From: Candidatus Diapherotrites archaeon CG10_big_fil_rev_8_21_14_0_10_31_34
GTDB lineage: Archaea > Iainarchaeota > Iainarchaeia > Iainarchaeales > 1-14-0-10-31-34
DNA length: 28,871 nt
Reading direction: 5' to 3'
Assembly (NCBI GenBank): GCA_002763225.1
Contig: PFAI01000015.1
Location: 886 to 29,756, forward strand
Positions 16,541 to 22,174 of this stretch are shown here, piece by piece. Positions within the stretch are counted from its first letter, which is position 1. Each line of letters begins with the position of its first letter. Position numbers and translations under genes: made by a program. A model generated the notes under the pieces. That model searched no databases. It was given only the letters and a program-made list of their open reading frames with translations, and was not told where the DNA came from.

Positions 16541-17878
16541 ATGTTGAAAGCTGTTTCTCCAACAGATGGAAGATATGAAGATTTGACTAAAGAATTACAG
16601 GAAATCTTCTCTGAATATGGAATGCAAAAATACCGAACAGAAGTAGAAATAAAATATTTGCTGTTTTTATCAAAAAAAAGAATAATAAGAAAATTCAATT
16701 CAAAAGAAAAAGAGTTTTTAGAAAAAATTTATTTAAAGTTTAATGAAAAAGATTCACATGAAATCAGCAGAATAGAAAAAACAACTAACCACGATGTAAA
16801 AGCAATAGAATATTTTATCAGAAAAAAAATTGAAAAAAATTCATTGAAAGATGTTGAAAGCTTTGTTCATTTTGGATTGACCTCAGAAGACATAAATAAT
16901 TTAACTAATTCAATTCAAATCAAAAAAGGGTTAGGTTTATACATAACTCAGATTTTGTTGCTGATTAAAAAATTGAGTTCAATTGCAGAAAAAGAAAAAA
17001 ACACTGCAATGTTAGGGCATACACATGGACAGCCTGCTTCCCCAACAACTTTTGGAAAAGAAGTAGCCATATTTGCTTCAAGGATTTCTGAAAGTTCGGA
17101 GATTTTGAAAGGATTAAAGCTTCCGGGAAAATTAAATTCTGCTACAGGAAACTTTAATTCTTTTTATGCTGCTTTCCCGGAAAAAAACTGGTTAAAGTTA
17201 AGCAAAGAGTTTGTTGAAAGCTTTGGGTTTGAACACAAAAAGTTAACTACCCAAATTATTCCTCATGAAAATATTTCCAGAATTTTAAATGAAATAAATT
17301 TACTGAATAATATTGTTGTTGATTTGGATTTAGATTTATGGGCATATATAAGTAAAGAATATGTTTCCCAGAAAAAAATCGGGAAAGAAACCGGAAGTTC
17401 AGTTATGCCACATAAAATTAACCCAATCCAGTTTGAAAACAGCGAAGGAAATTTATTATTAGCAAATAATTTACTTGTTTTTTTAAGTTCAAGACTGCAG
17501 AAAAGCAGGCTGCAAAGAGATTTATCAGATTCAACAATTAAAAGAAATTATGGGAATGCGTTTGGTTATTCTTTAATTGGAATAAAAATGTGTGTAAAAG
17601 GATTAGAAAGAATCCAACCAAACAGACAAAAAATGCTTGAAGAATTAAAAAACCATCCGGAAGTTTTAAGCGAAGCAGTTCAGACTATGATGAGAAAAGA
17701 AGGAAACAAAAAAGCTTACGAAGAAATGAAAAAATTCAGTAGAGGAAAAAAACTGAGTTTAGAAGAGTTAAAAAATTTTATTGAAAAAAGTTCTTTAAGC
17801 GAAAAAAGCAAAAAAATGCTTCTTAAATTAAAACCTGAAACTTATTTGGGAAAAGCAGTTGAATTAACAGATTTTTGA
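16541..17878 (+). CDS. purB: Adenylosuccinate lyase (E. coli PurB-like)
   Basis: AVSPTDGRY, TNHDVKAIEY, HFGLTSEDIN, THGQPA, GSSVMPHKINPIQFENSEGN. Confidence 0.96.
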   Translation: MLKAVSPTDGRYEDLTKELQEIFSEYGMQKYRTEVEIKYLLFLSKKRIIRKFNSKEKEFLEKIYLKFNEKDSHEISRIEKTTNHDVKAIEYFIRKKIEKNSLKDVESFVHFGLTSEDINNLTNSIQIKKGLGLYITQILLLIKKLSSIAEKEKNTAMLGHTHGQPASPTTFGKEVAIFASRISESSEILKGLKLPGKLNSATGNFNSFYAAFPEKNWLKLSKEFVESFGFEHKKLTTQIIPHENISRILNEINLLNNIVVDLDLDLWAYISKEYVSQKKIGKETGSSVMPHKINPIQFENSEGNLLLANNLLVFLSSRLQKSRLQRDLSDSTIKRNYGNAFGYSLIGIKMCVKGLERIQPNRQKMLEELKNHPEVLSEAVQTMMRKEGNKKAYEEMKKFSRGKKLSLEELKNFIEKSSLSEKSKKMLLKLKPETYLGKAVELTDF

Positions 17879-19165
17879 GTCTTTTGAACAGGTATCATCT
17901 CTTTCTGCCCCAAAAGACACTGTTTTAATCGGAACATTTAATTCTTTTTCAATAAACTCTAAATATTTTTTTGCATGTTCATCTAAAGCAGAATAACCTT
18001 TTTCTTTTAGCTCTTTTTGCTGTTCTTTATTTATTGAAAAACCTTTAAATTCTGAGTAATGAGGAACTGCTTTTGCAACTAAATGATTTGCATAAGGAAA
18101 ATCAAAAAACTTTTTTCCTTCAATTAAATAATAATCTGCAATAAGAAGTTTTTTTATCCCGCTTAAAACATCTAATTTAGTTATTGCAATTTCAGTAAAA
18201 CCATTTAACCTATTTGACATGCGGAGCATTGGTAAATCCAGCCAGCCAACTCTTCTTGCTCTTCCGGTTGTAGTCCCAAACTCATTTCCTGCGTTTCTTA
18301 AAAAATCTGCTTCTTCCCCTGAAATTTCTGTCGGAAAAGGGCCTGAACCAACTCTAGTAGTATAAGCTTTAACTATTCCAATAATTCTTTCAGAAATTTT
18401 TTGAGGGGAAATCCCTATTCCTGTTGTTGCCGCACCAGAAGTCGGATGAGAAGAAGTAACAAAAGGATAGGTTCCAAAATCATTGTCTAACAAAGTTCCT
18501 TGAGCACCTTCAAACAAAACTTTTTTTCCTTTATCCAAACATTCATTGACTTCAAGTGAAACATCAGTTAACATTTCCTTGAATTCTTTTCCTAAAGCAG
18601 AATATTGTTTGAAAACTTCTTCTTGGGTGAAATCAAAATGTTTGTTTAAAATTTTTTCACACACATTTTTATAATAAGGATAATTAAAATCAAGTTTTTC
18701 TTTTAACCTTTTTTCATCAACTAAATCATCAAACCTAATTCCAATTCTTGATGCCCTGTCAGCATAGCATGGACCGACTCCTCTTCTGGTTGTTCCAATA
18801 TTTTTTTCTTTTAAAGCTTCTTCTTTCCCAATATCAATCACATTATGCCAGGGCATAATTATCTGGCATCTTGGGTCAATGCCCAAATTTACTTTAATTC
18901 CTTTTTCTTTTAATCCATCTATTTCCTGTTTTAAAACTCTTGGATCCAATGAAACCCCTGTTCCAATCAAAGAACGTTTTTTTCTTACAACCCCTGAAGG
19001 AAGCAAATGCAGTTTGAATACTTTATCTTTTACTACCACAGTATGCCCTGCGTTATTTCCCCCTTGGTATCTTACAACATAATCAGATTGTTCAGCTAAA
19101 CAATCAACTAATTTGCCTTTTCCTTCATCCCCAAACTGGGAGCCAATAACCATAGTTGAACTCAT
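17864..19165 (-). CDS. purA: Adenylosuccinate synthetase
   Basis: Start reassigned to ATG 19165 because the listed extension runs through a tRNA. QFGDEGKGK, GGNNAGHT, EGAQG, GTTTGRARR, TKLDVL. Confidence 0.97.
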   Translation of the reverse strand: MSSTMVIGSQFGDEGKGKLVDCLAEQSDYVVRYQGGNNAGHTVVVKDKVFKLHLLPSGVVRKKRSLIGTGVSLDPRVLKQEIDGLKEKGIKVNLGIDPRCQIIMPWHNVIDIGKEEALKEKNIGTTRRGVGPCYADRASRIGIRFDDLVDEKRLKEKLDFNYPYYKNVCEKILNKHFDFTQEEVFKQYSALGKEFKEMLTDVSLEVNECLDKGKKVLFEGAQGTLLDNDFGTYPFVTSSHPTSGAATTGIGISPQKISERIIGIVKAYTTRVGSGPFPTEISGEEADFLRNAGNEFGTTTGRARRVGWLDLPMLRMSNRLNGFTEIAITKLDVLSGIKKLLIADYYLIEGKKFFDFPYANHLVAKAVPHYSEFKGFSINKEQQKELKEKGYSALDEHAKKYLEFIEKELNVPIKTVSFGAERDDTCSKDSKIC

Positions 19166-19203
19166 AACCTTCAAAATAAGGTGAGAAGAATTTAAAAAAA
19201 GAA

Positions 19204-19321
19204 TGAGGCTGGCGGGGTTTGAACCCGCGACACCACGGTCTTCAGCCGTGTGCTCTCCAAAGCCTATCATGAGCTAATAAAAAAAATATTCCTCTGTGAT
19301 ATCAGACTGAGCTACAGCCTC
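19204..19321 (-). tRNA. tRNA-Phe(GAA) with a 44-nt D-loop intron (19259-19302)
   Basis: Acceptor stem GAGGCTG/CAGCCTC-A, anticodon arm CACGG-CTGAAGA-CCGTG, T arm GCGGG-TTCAAAC-CCCGC. The D arm is interrupted by an insert forming a bulge-helix-bulge. Confidence 0.93.
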
Positions 19322-19327
19322 AAGATA

Positions 19328-20299
19328 TTAATAAATAGGGTGTGCAAGTGTTTTAAATTTATTTGTTGTCATCAACGAAACCATTTTATTAAGACGCCAT
19401 TGTTTCACTGGGTGAATAAACAATATTTCATTATTAAGTTTTTCAATATCTTTGTGTCTTTCTATTTGAATATAGCTAGACTGTTTACCCAAATCAAAAT
19501 AAGGCCCATTTACACTAATATTAAAAACCTCCTGCAAAATTTCTTTCATTGATTTTATAAAATTGTGTGATTTCATTCTAAGCTTTATTCTTGGTTGAGA
19601 GTTTAATCCTCTTTCAACGGCCCTCGTATCTCCATCTGCATCAAAAACTCCTCGTATAAACCATTTCTTAATTTCCGGAAAAGAATTTTCAATCAAAATA
19701 GGAACTTTTAAAGTCTCATATTTTTTGCCTGAAGGAACCCCAAAAACTTCGGTTAAAAAACGGTAAATTACTTTGTTTGTTGGGTTTAGATAATAAAGCT
19801 GTTCTCCTTTTTGTATTCTTTCAGTTCTAATTGGAAACACTGCACCAAATAACTCATAAAACAATTTTTTTATTTTTTTAATTTGTTCTAAAAATTCATC
19901 TCCAACAATAATTTTGTGTTCAAACCTTCTGGTTTTTAAGTAAGTTTTTTTAATGTCTTTTAAACCACCATCCCCTAAAAAATAACCAACAAAATAAGCT
20001 AATTTTGGGTTAAGTTTTTTTGGCAAATTTATTGGTTTAGCCCCTTTTGCTTTCACAAATTTAAAATTGGAATAAATTTTTTTAGTGTTTTTAAGTAAGA
20101 AATCAGAGTCTATGACAAAAAATTGACCTTCTGAAAAACATTTCAGATAAGAAGCTTTTTCATCAATTTCTTCAATATATAAATCAGGCAAATAATTTGG
20201 AAGATTGGTTGCGGGTGCGTTTTTGATTTTAATTTCTTTAAGCTGTTCTTTTAGAATTTTTCCATATTTGGTTTTTAAAAATAAATTAGTCGACATCAC
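19328..20299 (-). CDS. Free-standing two-motif LAGLIDADG endonuclease-like protein
   Basis: LAYFVGYFLGDG and WFIRGVFDADG motifs with acidic catalytic positions retained; no intein splicing motifs visible. Confidence 0.85.
   Translation of the reverse strand: MMSTNLFLKTKYGKILKEQLKEIKIKNAPATNLPNYLPDLYIEEIDEKASYLKCFSEGQFFVIDSDFLLKNTKKIYSNFKFVKAKGAKPINLPKKLNPKLAYFVGYFLGDGGLKDIKKTYLKTRRFEHKIIVGDEFLEQIKKIKKLFYELFGAVFPIRTERIQKGEQLYYLNPTNKVIYRFLTEVFGVPSGKKYETLKVPILIENSFPEIKKWFIRGVFDADGDTRAVERGLNSQPRIKLRMKSHNFIKSMKEILQEVFNISVNGPYFDLGKQSSYIQIERHKDIEKLNNEILFIHPVKQWRLNKMVSLMTTNKFKTLAHPIY
19351..19357 (-). promoter_or_regulatory. Putative TATA box for tRNA-Phe, inside the LAGLIDADG 3' end
   Basis: TTTAAAA on the minus strand about 30 nt upstream of tRNA G1. 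Confidence 0.4.
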
Positions 20300-20371
20300 A
20301 AATTTTTGTTTTTTCTATTTAAAAACAAAAACTAGACACAGCTCTGCCGATGAAAAAAATGTAGCAAGGCA

Positions 20372-20423
20372 GTACTATCGAGCAAAGCGAAGATAGTACA
20401 CTCCACAGCCGCGAGTTGCGGCT
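20372..20423 (-). ncRNA. Structured 3' trailer of tRNA-Lys(CTT): two hairpins
   Basis: AGCCGC/GCGGCT stem (20407-20423) and GTACTATC/GATAGTAC stem (20372-20399). Confidence 0.55.
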
Positions 20424-20425
20424 AA

Positions 20426-20498
20426 CGAGCCCAAGGGGATTCGAACCCCTGACATCCAGCTTAAGAGGCTGGCGCTCTACCGACTGAGCTATGGGCCC
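20426..20498 (-). tRNA. tRNA-Lys(CTT)
   Basis: GGGCCCATAGCTCAGTCGGTAGAGCG-CCAGC-CTCTTAA-GCTGG...GGTTCGAATCC...GGGCTCG; 73 nt, CCA not encoded. Confidence 0.96.
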
Positions 20499-20587
20499 AA
20501 CAACTTTAAAAAAAGTTGTACAAAAAAACAAGGCTTACTTTAAAATTAAACTGCAAAAGTTTTAAGAACAAAATGAGGTTTAAGACA

Positions 20588-20642
20588 GCATCATCGAACC
20601 AAAGCGAAGATGATGCATCGTGCTTAAACGGCGAAACGTTTA
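20588..20642 (-). ncRNA. Structured 3' trailer of tRNA-Lys(TTT): two hairpins
   Basis: TAAACG/CGTTTA stem (20625-20642) and GCATCATC/GATGATGC stem (20588-20616); the loop is nearly identical to that of the other trailer. Confidence 0.55.
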
Positions 20643-20715
20643 CGAGTCCGAAGGGATTCGAACCCTCGACACCCGGCTTAAAAGGCCGGTGCTCTACCGA
20701 CTGAGCTACGGACCC
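20643..20715 (-). tRNA. tRNA-Lys(TTT)
   Basis: GGGTCCGTAGCTCAGTCGGTAGAGCA-CCGGC-CTTTTAA-GCCGG...GGTTCGAATCC...GGACTCG; 73 nt. Confidence 0.96.
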
Positions 20716-20829
20716 AAAACTTTTAAAAAAAGTTGTGGTAAAAAACATTTTGTATTAAAAAAATATTACTTCAATAAAAATATAAATGTGCTTTAGAAGC
20801 AGTAAAAGAATTAAGTAAAAAAAGTTATA

Positions 20830-22116
20830 TTAAACTTTCTTTTTTGGTTTTAGTTCCTTTAAACCAAGCATATAAGGCCAAAGTGCTTTAGGGATTTTTA
20901 CTGTGCCTTGTTTTGTCTGAAAATTTTCTAAAATTAAACGCAACATTCTTGCAGTAGCAACCATAGTATTATTTAATGTGTGAACCAATTTCTTTTCTTT
21001 TCCATCAAAATACTTTATATTTAATCTTCTTGCCTGAAAATCAGTGCAATTAGAACAAGACATTACTTCAATATATTTTTTTTCTCTTGGAGAGTAGGCT
21101 TCAATATCATATTTTTTTGAAGCAACAACCCCAATATCTCCTGTACAAACATTGACTACTCTAAAAGGAATTCCTAAAAGTTTAAGAAAGTCTTCTGAGT
21201 TTCTTAATAATTCTTCGTGAAATTTTTCTGAATCTTCTTCTTTGCAGAAAATAACTTGTTCTATTTTGTTAAATTGATGAACTCTAAACAAACCTCTTTC
21301 ATCCAAACCGTGTTTTCCAACTTCTTTTCTAAAACAAGCAGAACATCCGACAAACTTCAAAGGAAGATTTTTTTCATCCAGGGTTTCATCCATATGCATA
21401 GCCACAATAGGGTGCTCTGAAGTAGCAATCAGATAAAGATCTTGATTTTCAAGTTTATACATTACATTTTCAAAATCATTTAAATCAGTGACTCCAGAAT
21501 AAGGTCTTCTTTTCATAAGAAAAGGGGGGTGAACCAGCAAATATCCTTTTTTAAACAAAATATCTATGGCTAAATTTCTTAAAGCATGTTCAAGCAAAGC
21601 AAGTTCGCCTTTTAAAAAATAAAATCCTGTTCCTGAAATTTTAACTGCTCTTTCAAAGTCTGCTCCATTTAATTCAACTGCGAGTTTTCCATGGTGCTTT
21701 AATTCAAAATCAAAAACAGGAATTTTTCCCTCTTTTTTTATTTCTTTGTTTTCAGAGTCATCTTTACCAAAAGGAACGCTGTCATGCAACAAATTAGGCA
21801 GTTTGTATAAGAGTTCTTCAAACTCTTTTTTCAATAAAAAAAGTTTTTGTTCTTTTTCTTTTAACTGGATAGGGAGCAGTTTTGCTTCCTTCAGAGCATC
21901 AAAAACGTTTTTTTTAGATGAAATTCCTTTTTGTATTTCCGCAGTAATTTTGTTTCTTTTAAATCTTAACTCCTCGGTTTCCTTTAACAGTTCACGCGTT
22001 TCCTTATCAACAACAATTAATTTATCAAACACGCCCAAATATTCTTTTGACTGTCTTTTCTCCAAATTCGTTTTTACCAAAAAAGGATTTTCCCTAATTA
22101 ATTTAATATCAAGCAT
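20830..22116 (-). CDS. serS: Seryl-tRNA synthetase
   Basis: Start reassigned to ATG 22116 (MLDIKLIRENP). LIATSEHP, FRKE...GLFRVHQFNKIEQ, SCSNCTDFQARRL, HTLN. Confidence 0.97.
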   Translation of the reverse strand: MLDIKLIRENPFLVKTNLEKRQSKEYLGVFDKLIVVDKETRELLKETEELRFKRNKITAEIQKGISSKKNVFDALKEAKLLPIQLKEKEQKLFLLKKEFEELLYKLPNLLHDSVPFGKDDSENKEIKKEGKIPVFDFELKHHGKLAVELNGADFERAVKISGTGFYFLKGELALLEHALRNLAIDILFKKGYLLVHPPFLMKRRPYSGVTDLNDFENVMYKLENQDLYLIATSEHPIVAMHMDETLDEKNLPLKFVGCSACFRKEVGKHGLDERGLFRVHQFNKIEQVIFCKEEDSEKFHEELLRNSEDFLKLLGIPFRVVNVCTGDIGVVASKKYDIEAYSPREKKYIEVMSCSNCTDFQARRLNIKYFDGKEKKLVHTLNNTMVATARMLRLILENFQTKQGTVKIPKALWPYMLGLKELKPKKKV

Positions 22117-22174
22117 AATACCAACAAATTCAATAAAAGATATTATAAAAATAGTAAGCAACCAATAAAATAAT

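Follow-up and report, generated by a model that had tools for sequence, protein, structure and literature searches.

Collaborative homing between free-standing endonuclease genes and neighboring introns is described for phages, where, in the accounts given in PMC6083498 and PMC2790892, F-CphI lies beside the intron-containing psbA gene of cyanophage S-PM2 and mobE of T4 is associated with the defunct I-TevIII intron. In the case of archaeal tRNA genes, the questions why small introns sit at odd positions and how they spread have lacked an answer from the time disrupted tRNA genes were first surveyed. In a hypothesis attributed to Randau and Soll, the disruption of tRNA genes is a defense against mobile elements that integrate, and Fujishima et al. 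are said to have reported intron transposition in the Thermoproteales in 2010. The relation between tRNA gene disruption and mobile DNA is also a topic mentioned in PMC10714607. Here we describe a locus from Candidatus Diapherotrites archaeon CG10_big_fil_rev_8_21_14_0_10_31_34, located in a 28,871-nt stretch of contig PFAI01000015.1 (positions 886 to 29,756; assembly GCA_002763225.1), hereafter the window. A free-standing gene predicted to encode a double-motif LAGLIDADG homing endonuclease (19328..20299, minus strand) is found immediately upstream of a tRNA-Phe(GAA) gene (19321..19204, minus strand, read directly from the sequence) that contains a 44-nt bulge-helix-bulge (BHB) intron. As far as sequence comparison can tell, the chances are somewhat better than even that the endonuclease targets the uninterrupted D-arm DNA of tRNA-Phe and that the intron serves as immunity against it, in a relationship of collaborative homing or addiction.

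The endonuclease gene and the tRNA intron occur together across related genomes. The set of relatives comprises 61 genomes, including the window's own genome (G000, 81% complete). Strong orthologs, defined by an E value below 1e-90, are found in 6 of the 61 genomes and in two of the six genomes of the window's genus, and a tRNA-Phe gene lies directly downstream in all six cases. The same is true of all 12 loci in a genome collection, which carry the labels Iainarchaeum, Woesearchaeota and Nanoarchaeota, with one metagenome-assembled genome (MAG) labeled Micrarchaeota. Thirty further loci come from metagenomes; five have no downstream sequence, and among the 25 that can be evaluated tRNA-Phe follows on the same strand in 24 and is convergent in one (L118). 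These locus sets overlap, as L065, L067, L071 and L072 correspond to G001, G055, G044 and G015, and several loci appear in both the metagenome and the genome sets. The distance between gene and tRNA is 0–70 nt, or the two overlap, and the upstream neighbor of the endonuclease gene varies between loci. The adjoining tRNA-Phe is intron-bearing in 12/12 genome loci and in 25/25 evaluable metagenome loci. Because it recurs at every evaluable ortholog locus, this arrangement is far from chance.

The intron most often occupies D-loop position 18/19, as it does in the window. This position is used in 10 of the 12 genome loci; of the other two, L073 has an intron at 15/16 plus three others, and L071 (G044) has one at 37/38 only, together with a diverged D-arm. 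Among the 25 evaluable metagenome loci, the intron lies at 18/19 in 20, at 15/16 in four and at 13/14 in one. The tRNA-Phe genes of L073, L116 (~2418–2600) and L118 (reverse strand) are each interrupted four times: once in the D-loop, once at 37/38, and once each in the variable region and the T-loop.

The converse comparison starts from the tRNA rather than from the endonuclease. A tRNA-Phe gene was located in 51 of the 61 relatives. It is intron-bearing in 20 genomes, 16 of which have a LAGLIDADG gene directly upstream, and intron-less in 30 genomes, where the retrieved flanks contain no LAGLIDADG gene (Fisher p ~1e-9, a value that overstates significance since related genomes are not independent). 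As a control, Pfam was applied to 53 of 78 upstream frames of at least 110 aa, the 25 overlapping or distant frames being dropped, and a tblastn search with 32 LAGLIDADG queries against all 31 intron-less loci returned tRNA read-through artefacts only. The upstream neighbors of intron-less tRNA-Phe genes are typically tRNA-Lys and serS. The pairing of gene and intron recurs in several host families and with several nuclease families. Co-occurrence was the test that a first-pass annotation of the window had proposed when it suggested collaborative homing, and its outcome is strongly positive.

A wider association of such genes with tRNAs can be seen among paralogous free-standing LAGLIDADG frames of 220–400 aa in related genomes (L011–L034). 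A tRNA gene falls within 1.5 kb of at least 17 of these 25 loci, compared to a chance expectation of approximately 1 in 7 (a rough estimate from ~45 tRNA genes per 1.1 Mb). The tRNAs, for Leu, Lys, Gly, Thr, Arg and Ser, are often directly downstream, on the same strand and over-long (107–127 nt, so intron-bearing).

The 16 LAGLIDADG genes found upstream of tRNA-Phe belong to four families. Family A, which includes the window gene, is found in six genomes, encodes proteins of ~300 aa and accompanies D-loop introns. Family B (~220 aa) is found in G006, G012, G020, G023 and G035 (L082, L088, L090, L094 and L096), and the tRNA-Phe has introns at 31/32 plus 37/38 in all five. Family C, from G003, G004 and G046 (L060, L078 and L095), is accompanied by introns at 4/5 or 9/10. 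Family D carries an N-terminal helix-turn-helix (HTH) joined to the LAGLIDADG region and is found in G048, with an 18/19 intron, and in G052, with introns at 31/32 plus 37/38 (L045 and L093). The congener G004 combines a family C gene (L078, G004:C144 ~1470–1700) with four tRNA-Phe introns, at 4/5, 18/19, 31/32 and 37/38, of which the 18/19 intron is homologous to that of the window (78% identity across the region). This four-intron tRNA-Phe looks like a record of successive occupants.

Within the window's genus, the locus is found in both occupied and empty states. The order on the minus strand of the window is serS, tRNA-Lys(UUU), tRNA-Lys(CUU), a 125-nt spacer, the endonuclease open reading frame (ORF), 6 nt, tRNA-Phe(GAA), 38 nt and purA. 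The seryl-tRNA synthetase gene serS (20830..22161, minus strand) and the adenylosuccinate synthetase gene purA (17864..19165, minus strand; true start ATG 19165) are the left and right anchors of a conserved synteny, serS - tRNA-Lys - [endonuclease] - tRNA-Phe - purA, and tRNA-Lys(CUU) (20425..20499, minus strand), the upstream neighbor, forms the conserved flank of the insertion slot. The second lysine tRNA gene, tRNA-Lys(UUU) (20642..20716, minus strand), was identified by ARAGORN and Rfam. Between serS and purA, G000 and G001 contain the family A gene plus the 18/19 intron, G003 and G004 contain the family C gene plus other introns, and G002 and G005 are empty and intron-less. The window differs from G002, in which tRNA-Lys(CUU) and tRNA-Phe are separated by 43 nt, by ~1.06 kb of inserted sequence and by the 44-nt intron.

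In 9 of 27 parsed loci (L068, L069, L073, L074, L103, L114, L117, L122 and L124) the endonuclease ORF enters the tRNA-Phe gene and ends at the tRNA's own T8-A9-G10 triplet, so the tRNA promoter must be inside the coding sequence. This physical fusion to the tRNA 5′ end could reflect a cassette of the kind found in fungal mitochondria (mORF-type), whereby the gene integrates into a tRNA gene along with a replacement 5′ part and an intron and leaves the displaced old 5′ fragment behind. Such integration is unlike classical double-strand-break homing between homologous flanks. A GTGGGGCTG string upstream of the endonuclease gene in L118 matches the tRNA acceptor 5′ end and is consistent with a displaced fragment; however, inspection by eye of the 125 nt between tRNA-Lys(CUU) and the ORF found no convincing tRNA-Phe 5′ relic in the window or in G001, and at the empty site of G002 a clean junction of 43 nt joins tRNA-Lys to tRNA-Phe. 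A cassette origin is very improbable.

The window intron (19259..19302, minus strand) was delimited by comparison with the intron-less tRNA-Phe gene of the congener G002, in which query positions 4–23 and 68–121 adjoin, with 100% and 98% identity, and positions 19302–19259 are absent. The 5′ exon (19303..19321, minus strand) runs from G1 to G18 and comprises the acceptor 5′ strand, the D-stem 5′ strand and the start of the D-loop. The 3′ exon (19204..19258, minus strand) runs from G19 to discriminator A73, contains the anticodon GAA and has no encoded CCA. The exon–intron junctions have the layout AGUC[UG|A]UAUCA ... UGAUA GGCU[UU|G], with a 4-bp central helix formed by AGUC of the 5′ exon and GGCU of the intron, bulges UGA and UUG, an inner helix UAUCA/UGAUA and an outer helix offset by 2 nt. 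BHB motifs are cut after the second bulge nucleotide. Cleavage at these points gives the D-loop AGUCUGGGA, identical to that of the intron-less gene in G002. The loci together yield 26 distinct 18/19 introns. Of these, 25 share a geometry that combines a central helix of 4 bp, two bulges of 3 nt and an inner helix of 3 bp or more; the inner helices differ in sequence, and in the G015 intron the central helix is a compensatory AGUC/GACU. By these sequence features the 18/19 inserts are genuine BHB introns.

The enzyme expected to remove the intron is encoded in the window's genome, where a 172-aa ORF on G000:C6 matches the EndA family (PF01974, 96.4 bits). To our knowledge, EndA alone is sufficient for BHB intron cutting in all characterized systems. 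DPANN lineages rich in disrupted tRNA genes are reported to have alpha4-type EndAs with an extra loop (Kaneta et al. 2018, PMC5829648). The disrupted tRNA is easily overlooked: ARAGORN misses the window tRNA-Phe, and the Rfam tRNA model matches its 3′ part only (19212–19264, 29.5 bits). A single tRNA-Phe gene is detected in G000. A search of sequencing runs for this sequence returned 24 DNA runs and no RNA run. Among the assembled contigs of four runs, which gave short pieces of low depth with joints too short to be trusted (sides of 24 letters or fewer), no form of this organism lacking the endonuclease gene or the intron was seen, although such contigs cannot demonstrate absence.

The positions of the introns suggest what the endonuclease may recognize. 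The intron sites associated with family A (13/14 to 18/19) all lie within TAGCTCAGYCYGGGAGAGCA, a 20-bp sequence that is nearly invariant in 28 intron-less alleles and is pseudo-palindromic because it encodes the D-stem. In G000, no uninterrupted copy of this candidate target was found with one mismatch or fewer. From the intron positions and the conservation, we infer that TAGCTCAGYCYGGGAGAGCA is the recognition site and that the intron splits it.

The proposed mechanism is as follows. The endonuclease gene would be a selfish element that stands alone just in front of tRNA-Phe, and its target would be the uninterrupted, nearly invariant, pseudo-palindromic D-arm DNA of that tRNA gene (TAGCTCAG-YCYG|GGA-GAGCA). 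In the window's own genome the 44-nt BHB intron would split the target and EndA would remove the intron from the transcript, so that the only detected tRNA-Phe gene would be immune at the DNA level and functional at the RNA level. When carrier DNA meets an intron-less allele, the D-arm would be cut and repaired from the carrier, and repair could carry over the endonuclease gene jointly with the 5′ exon and the intron. Joint copying is plausible because all three lie within ~1.1 kb, the ORF stop being 25 nt upstream of the intron, and are flanked by conserved tRNA-Lys and tRNA-Phe 3′-exon sequence. A resident nuclease would also make loss of the intron lethal, an addiction-like effect. The cut site, the resistance of the split allele and the repair-mediated transfer are all predictions from the arrangement of the locus. 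What is observed is one feature of a collaborative homing pair: an endonuclease gene beside an intron-bearing gene, the two co-occurring across genomes.

The ORF at 19328..20299 (minus strand) was evaluated by the ORF list, Pfam, alignment and structural modeling. It encodes 323 aa from GTG 20299 or 322 aa from ATG 20296, one codon later; the latter is probably the start. The stop codon TAA occupies 19330–19328, and 6 nt separate it from G1 of tRNA-Phe at 19321. The stop-to-stop frame is 328 aa, so the ORF is not part of a longer intein-bearing gene and is free-standing. The protein matches LAGLIDADG_3 (PF14528, E 1.5e-7) and no HTH domain in Pfam. No Hint or splicing domain and no host extein were found by Pfam, NCBIfam or inspection of the 328-aa frame, and intein models match in the endonuclease portion only. 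Searches of NCBIfam and of PDB sequences returned the endonuclease portions of inteins plus I-DmoI, and nothing else. An intein identity for the ORF is thus ruled out by the 328-aa frame, the lack of a Hint domain and the lack of a host protein in the frame.

Both LAGLIDADG motifs are intact. Motif 1, LAYFVGYFLGDGG (residues 100–112; 19964..20002, minus strand), contains the predicted catalytic residue D110 (19970–19972), which aligns with the GDG of I-DmoI in the sequence search, and motif 2, KKWFIRGVFDADGD (residues 211–224; 19628..19669, minus strand), contains D222 (19634–19636). D110 and D222 are invariant in 20/20 aligned homologues of 39–73% identity, as are K129, D134-E135 and an N-terminal T-x-Y-G-x-I motif across the same alignment. 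These results bear out the first-pass annotation, which had described a free-standing LAGLIDADG gene among tRNA genes, with acidic catalytic positions in both motifs, lying outside any intein or intron and ending 6 bp before an intron-bearing tRNA-Phe.

An AF2 model built from the 20-homologue alignment is of high quality (pLDDT 93.4, pTM 0.92). Residues ~94 to 315 superpose on the endonuclease domain of the TliVMA intein (Z 18.6, root-mean-square deviation 2.2 A over 186 residues), and other structural matches are PI-PfuI (Z 18.0), I-Tsp061I (Z 17.2), WhiA (Z 16.8), I-DmoI (Z 14.5) and the bI3 maturase (Z 11.3). The pseudo-dimeric alpha-beta-beta-alpha-beta-beta-alpha fold of the class is present, with ~170–200 residues matched to I-DmoI, I-Tsp061I and intein endonuclease domains. 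An N-terminal region of ~95 residues precedes it. An intein origin of this region was considered but gained no support from the whole-model comparison, in which structural matches begin at residue ~28 or 94. The features that place the protein in the class are the two motifs per chain, the fold, the acidic residue closing each motif and presence/absence polymorphism at orthologous sites. The classical location inside an intron or intein does not apply, as the gene is free-standing and the 44-nt intron is too small to contain it. Based on sequence and model, the product of ORF 19328..20299 is predicted to be a monomeric, I-DmoI-like double-motif LAGLIDADG homing endonuclease.

The fold alone does not decide function, because WhiA and the bI3 maturase share it. 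It is conceivable that the host keeps a domesticated protein. Such a protein might aid processing of the D-loop intron, as a maturase or a helper of EndA would, or it might bind DNA and regulate the tRNA cluster in the manner of WhiA; a WhiA-like regulator or maturase was the alternative offered in the first-pass annotation. The tight link to one intron-bearing tRNA, the two structural matches just mentioned and the very high conservation, including the N-terminal T-x-Y-G-x-I motif, are all in keeping with domestication. So is strong purifying selection: the ratio of nonsynonymous to synonymous substitution rates (dN/dS) is 0.16 against the G001 ortholog (dS 1.23) and 0.16–0.43 in seven further ortholog pairs, with dS mostly close to saturation. 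The endonuclease family is under purifying selection. This result of the dN/dS check suggested by the first-pass annotation fits a functional nuclease, while it also leaves room for a host-beneficial role.

Several observations nonetheless speak against domestication, which we judge quite improbable. WhiA-like proteins are characterized by a C-terminal HTH domain and have lost the catalytic acidic residues. Here both catalytic Asp residues are invariant and Pfam detects no HTH domain; the retained residues and the missing HTH argue for a nuclease, and a WhiA-like transcription factor, suggested by fold similarity alone, is disfavored. The distribution is patchy, with strong orthologs in so few of the relatives and genus members, and the G059 copy seems to be pseudogenized. 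G008 and G039 retain the 18/19 intron although no LAGLIDADG gene lies close by; splicing therefore does not require the protein, and an obligatory maturase is likewise disfavored. Finally, it is established that EndA by itself cuts BHB introns in characterized systems (Kaneta et al. 2018, PMC5829648).

Some loci appear to be in transitional states. The family A ortholog of G059 (L009, G059:C114) contains an in-frame TGA, and the adjacent tRNA-Phe has three introns (4/5, 18/19 and 37/38); it is possible that this copy is a decaying gene. In G008 (L048, G008:C3), which belongs to the same family as the window's genome, the tRNA-Phe has the 18/19 intron, and ~800 bp of unassignable sequence, with a 123-aa frame lacking a Pfam match, is found where the gene would be. 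A tblastn search for a gene remnant in this ~800-bp spacer returned a tRNA read-through artefact only. The interrupted gene of G059 and the introns without a gene in G008 and G039 suggest the degenerate states expected of a homing cycle.

A number of points weigh against a target in the tRNA-Phe D-arm with the intron as its shield. The predicted target site is deduced from intron positions only, and the window's genome is 81% complete, so it may also contain a second, intron-less tRNA-Phe gene. Intron-bearing tRNA-Phe genes are found without any LAGLIDADG gene in four genomes (G008, G030, G039 and G043), the carrier G044 has no D-loop intron, and the LAGLIDADG gene of G050 precedes an intron-less, odd tRNA(GAA) with a diverged D-arm. 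The two members of family D do not share a single intron site. In the family A tree, the intron site switches between 15/16 and 18/19 three times among sister endonucleases; a 15/16 site that arises three times beside 18/19 sisters implies that the intron is renewed or shifted rather than strictly co-inherited; it resembles a shield replaced again and again more than one partner carried along with the gene. Purifying selection over such depth exceeds the expectation for a purely selfish fixed element. The G000 and G001 endonucleases are 72% identical, compared to 77% for the flanking SerRS and 82–83% for PurA, and the endonuclease family tree divides roughly along host lineages; neither the divergence nor the tree gives a sign of recent horizontal transfer. 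A long vertical history punctuated by losses accounts for the data as well as repeated invasion does. As for a viral vector, a scan of viral contigs returned three distant LAGLIDADG matches only (25–38% identity over parts) and no ortholog.

Several of these points would be expected if the slot were simply a safe harbor for a selfish, or formerly selfish, LAGLIDADG gene whose true target lies elsewhere or whose cutting activity is lost. The space in front of tRNA-Phe would provide a strong promoter region and conserved flanks and would tolerate insertions, and the introns would have arisen for other reasons, such as protection from other integrating elements or intron transposition, and be correlated with the gene via shared ancestry. 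A family tree that tracks hosts, a G000–G001 divergence equal to that of housekeeping genes, the four genomes with an intron and no LAGLIDADG gene, and sister endonucleases with different intron sites all agree with such a history. Shared ancestry does not explain, however, why distinct families A, B and C occupy the same slot with distinct intron positions, why no LAGLIDADG gene is found at any of the 30 intron-less alleles, or why gene and intron are present or absent jointly at one locus within a genus. We regard the safe harbor as unlikely, and retain a homing endonuclease with the intron as immunity as the favored interpretation.

The remaining features of the locus concern its expression and surroundings. 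A TATA-like box, TTTTTAAATA (20316..20325, minus strand), is centered ~24 nt before the endonuclease ATG in a region conserved in G001. In the usual archaeal promoter geometry, a box ~24 nt before the ATG fits a leaderless transcript, and by this geometry TTTTTAAATA is the probable promoter of a leaderless endonuclease mRNA. A second TATA-like box, ATTTAAAA (19351..19358, minus strand), lies ~36 nt before G1 of tRNA-Phe within the last codons of the endonuclease ORF, in agreement with the earlier suggestion that the ORF overlaps a probable tRNA TATA box. A similar box is found at −50 to −22 in 18 of 21 parsed carriers compared to 13 of 25 intron-less loci, weak evidence given the AT-rich DNA and some mis-parsed loci.

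Downstream, a mechanically called purA ORF (17864–19270, minus strand) runs upstream through the tRNA-Phe 3′ exon, which gives rise to a tell-tale GSNP peptide. Both tRNA-Lys genes of the window are followed by 3′ trailers with hairpins (20336–20424 and 20556–20641, minus strand) that have the conserved loop UCUUCGCUUYGSUCGA. The same loop is found behind tRNA-Lys in G001 (L065 ~1090–1190) and behind tRNA-Leu in G057 (L016 ~2320–2390), and no matching family is present in Rfam. These hairpins could be a processing signal, a terminator or a small RNA. At L065 1284–1371, the tRNA-Leu(UAA) called by ARAGORN is a tRNA-Lys(CUU) with a ~15-nt intron beside the anticodon. A second free-standing LAGLIDADG-like frame of G000, of 377 aa, is found at G000:C42:1078-1521 (L002), with no tRNA detected by ARAGORN or Rfam on its 3-kb contig. 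LAGLIDADG matches at G000:C35:40806-41189 and G000:C51:7951-8424 lie within open frames of 1266 aa and 910 aa, which are probably intein-containing host proteins.

Taken beyond tRNA-Phe, the data raise the idea that non-canonical archaeal tRNA BHB introns arise and persist as DNA-level immunity to free-standing LAGLIDADG endonucleases encoded beside the tRNA gene, a proposal to which we give slightly less than an even chance. If true, each endonuclease lineage would be tied to one tRNA insertion site, and multi-intron tRNA genes such as the tRNA-Phe of G004 would be archives of serial invasions. One general mechanism would then account for how disrupted tRNA genes in DPANN, and possibly in the Archaea at large, originated, came by their intron positions and spread. 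Collaborative homing, described for phage group I introns, would also reach cellular archaea and introns spliced by proteins. The window locus and its relatives tie one intron position to one free-standing nuclease family, and other positions to other families, and the general idea that disruption protects is thereby reduced to an experiment with one protein and one substrate. The association explains how essential tRNAs of DPANN genomes escape standard tRNA finders, and it draws attention to a group of natural nucleases with predicted tRNA-gene targets. A full-text literature search, with subscription journals and supplements outside its coverage, returned no account in which a free-standing LAGLIDADG gene is paired with a BHB intron of a neighboring archaeal tRNA gene.

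The closest precedent for the arrangement is thus in phages. As with F-CphI and mobE, a free-standing endonuclease gene adjoins a gene whose ORF-less intron interrupts the presumed target, and joint movement and persistence are proposed. Unlike the phage systems, the hosts here are cellular archaea, the nuclease is of the LAGLIDADG type rather than Endo VII-like or HNH, the intron is a protein-spliced BHB intron rather than a self-splicing group I intron, the target gene is a tRNA gene and cleavage is predicted only. The window protein resembles I-DmoI and I-Tsp061I in its fold (Z 14.5 and 17.2), its single chain with two motifs, the acidic residue in each motif, the archaeal host and the association with a BHB intron. 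The genes for I-DmoI and I-Tsp061I, however, lie inside the rRNA BHB introns that they mobilize, whereas the window gene lies outside an intron too small for it, and the window protein has ~95 extra N-terminal residues and a sequence identity of ~20% to these enzymes. The closest structures (Z 18.0–18.6) and the closest sequences are the endonuclease domains of archaeal inteins such as TliVMA and PI-PfuI, from which the window protein differs in having no Hint or splicing domain and no host extein. As in the idea ascribed to Randau and Soll, disruption of the tRNA gene is seen as a response to, or a product of, mobile DNA; what differs is that the agent proposed here is concrete and linked to the gene, namely a putative site-specific nuclease family for each intron position.

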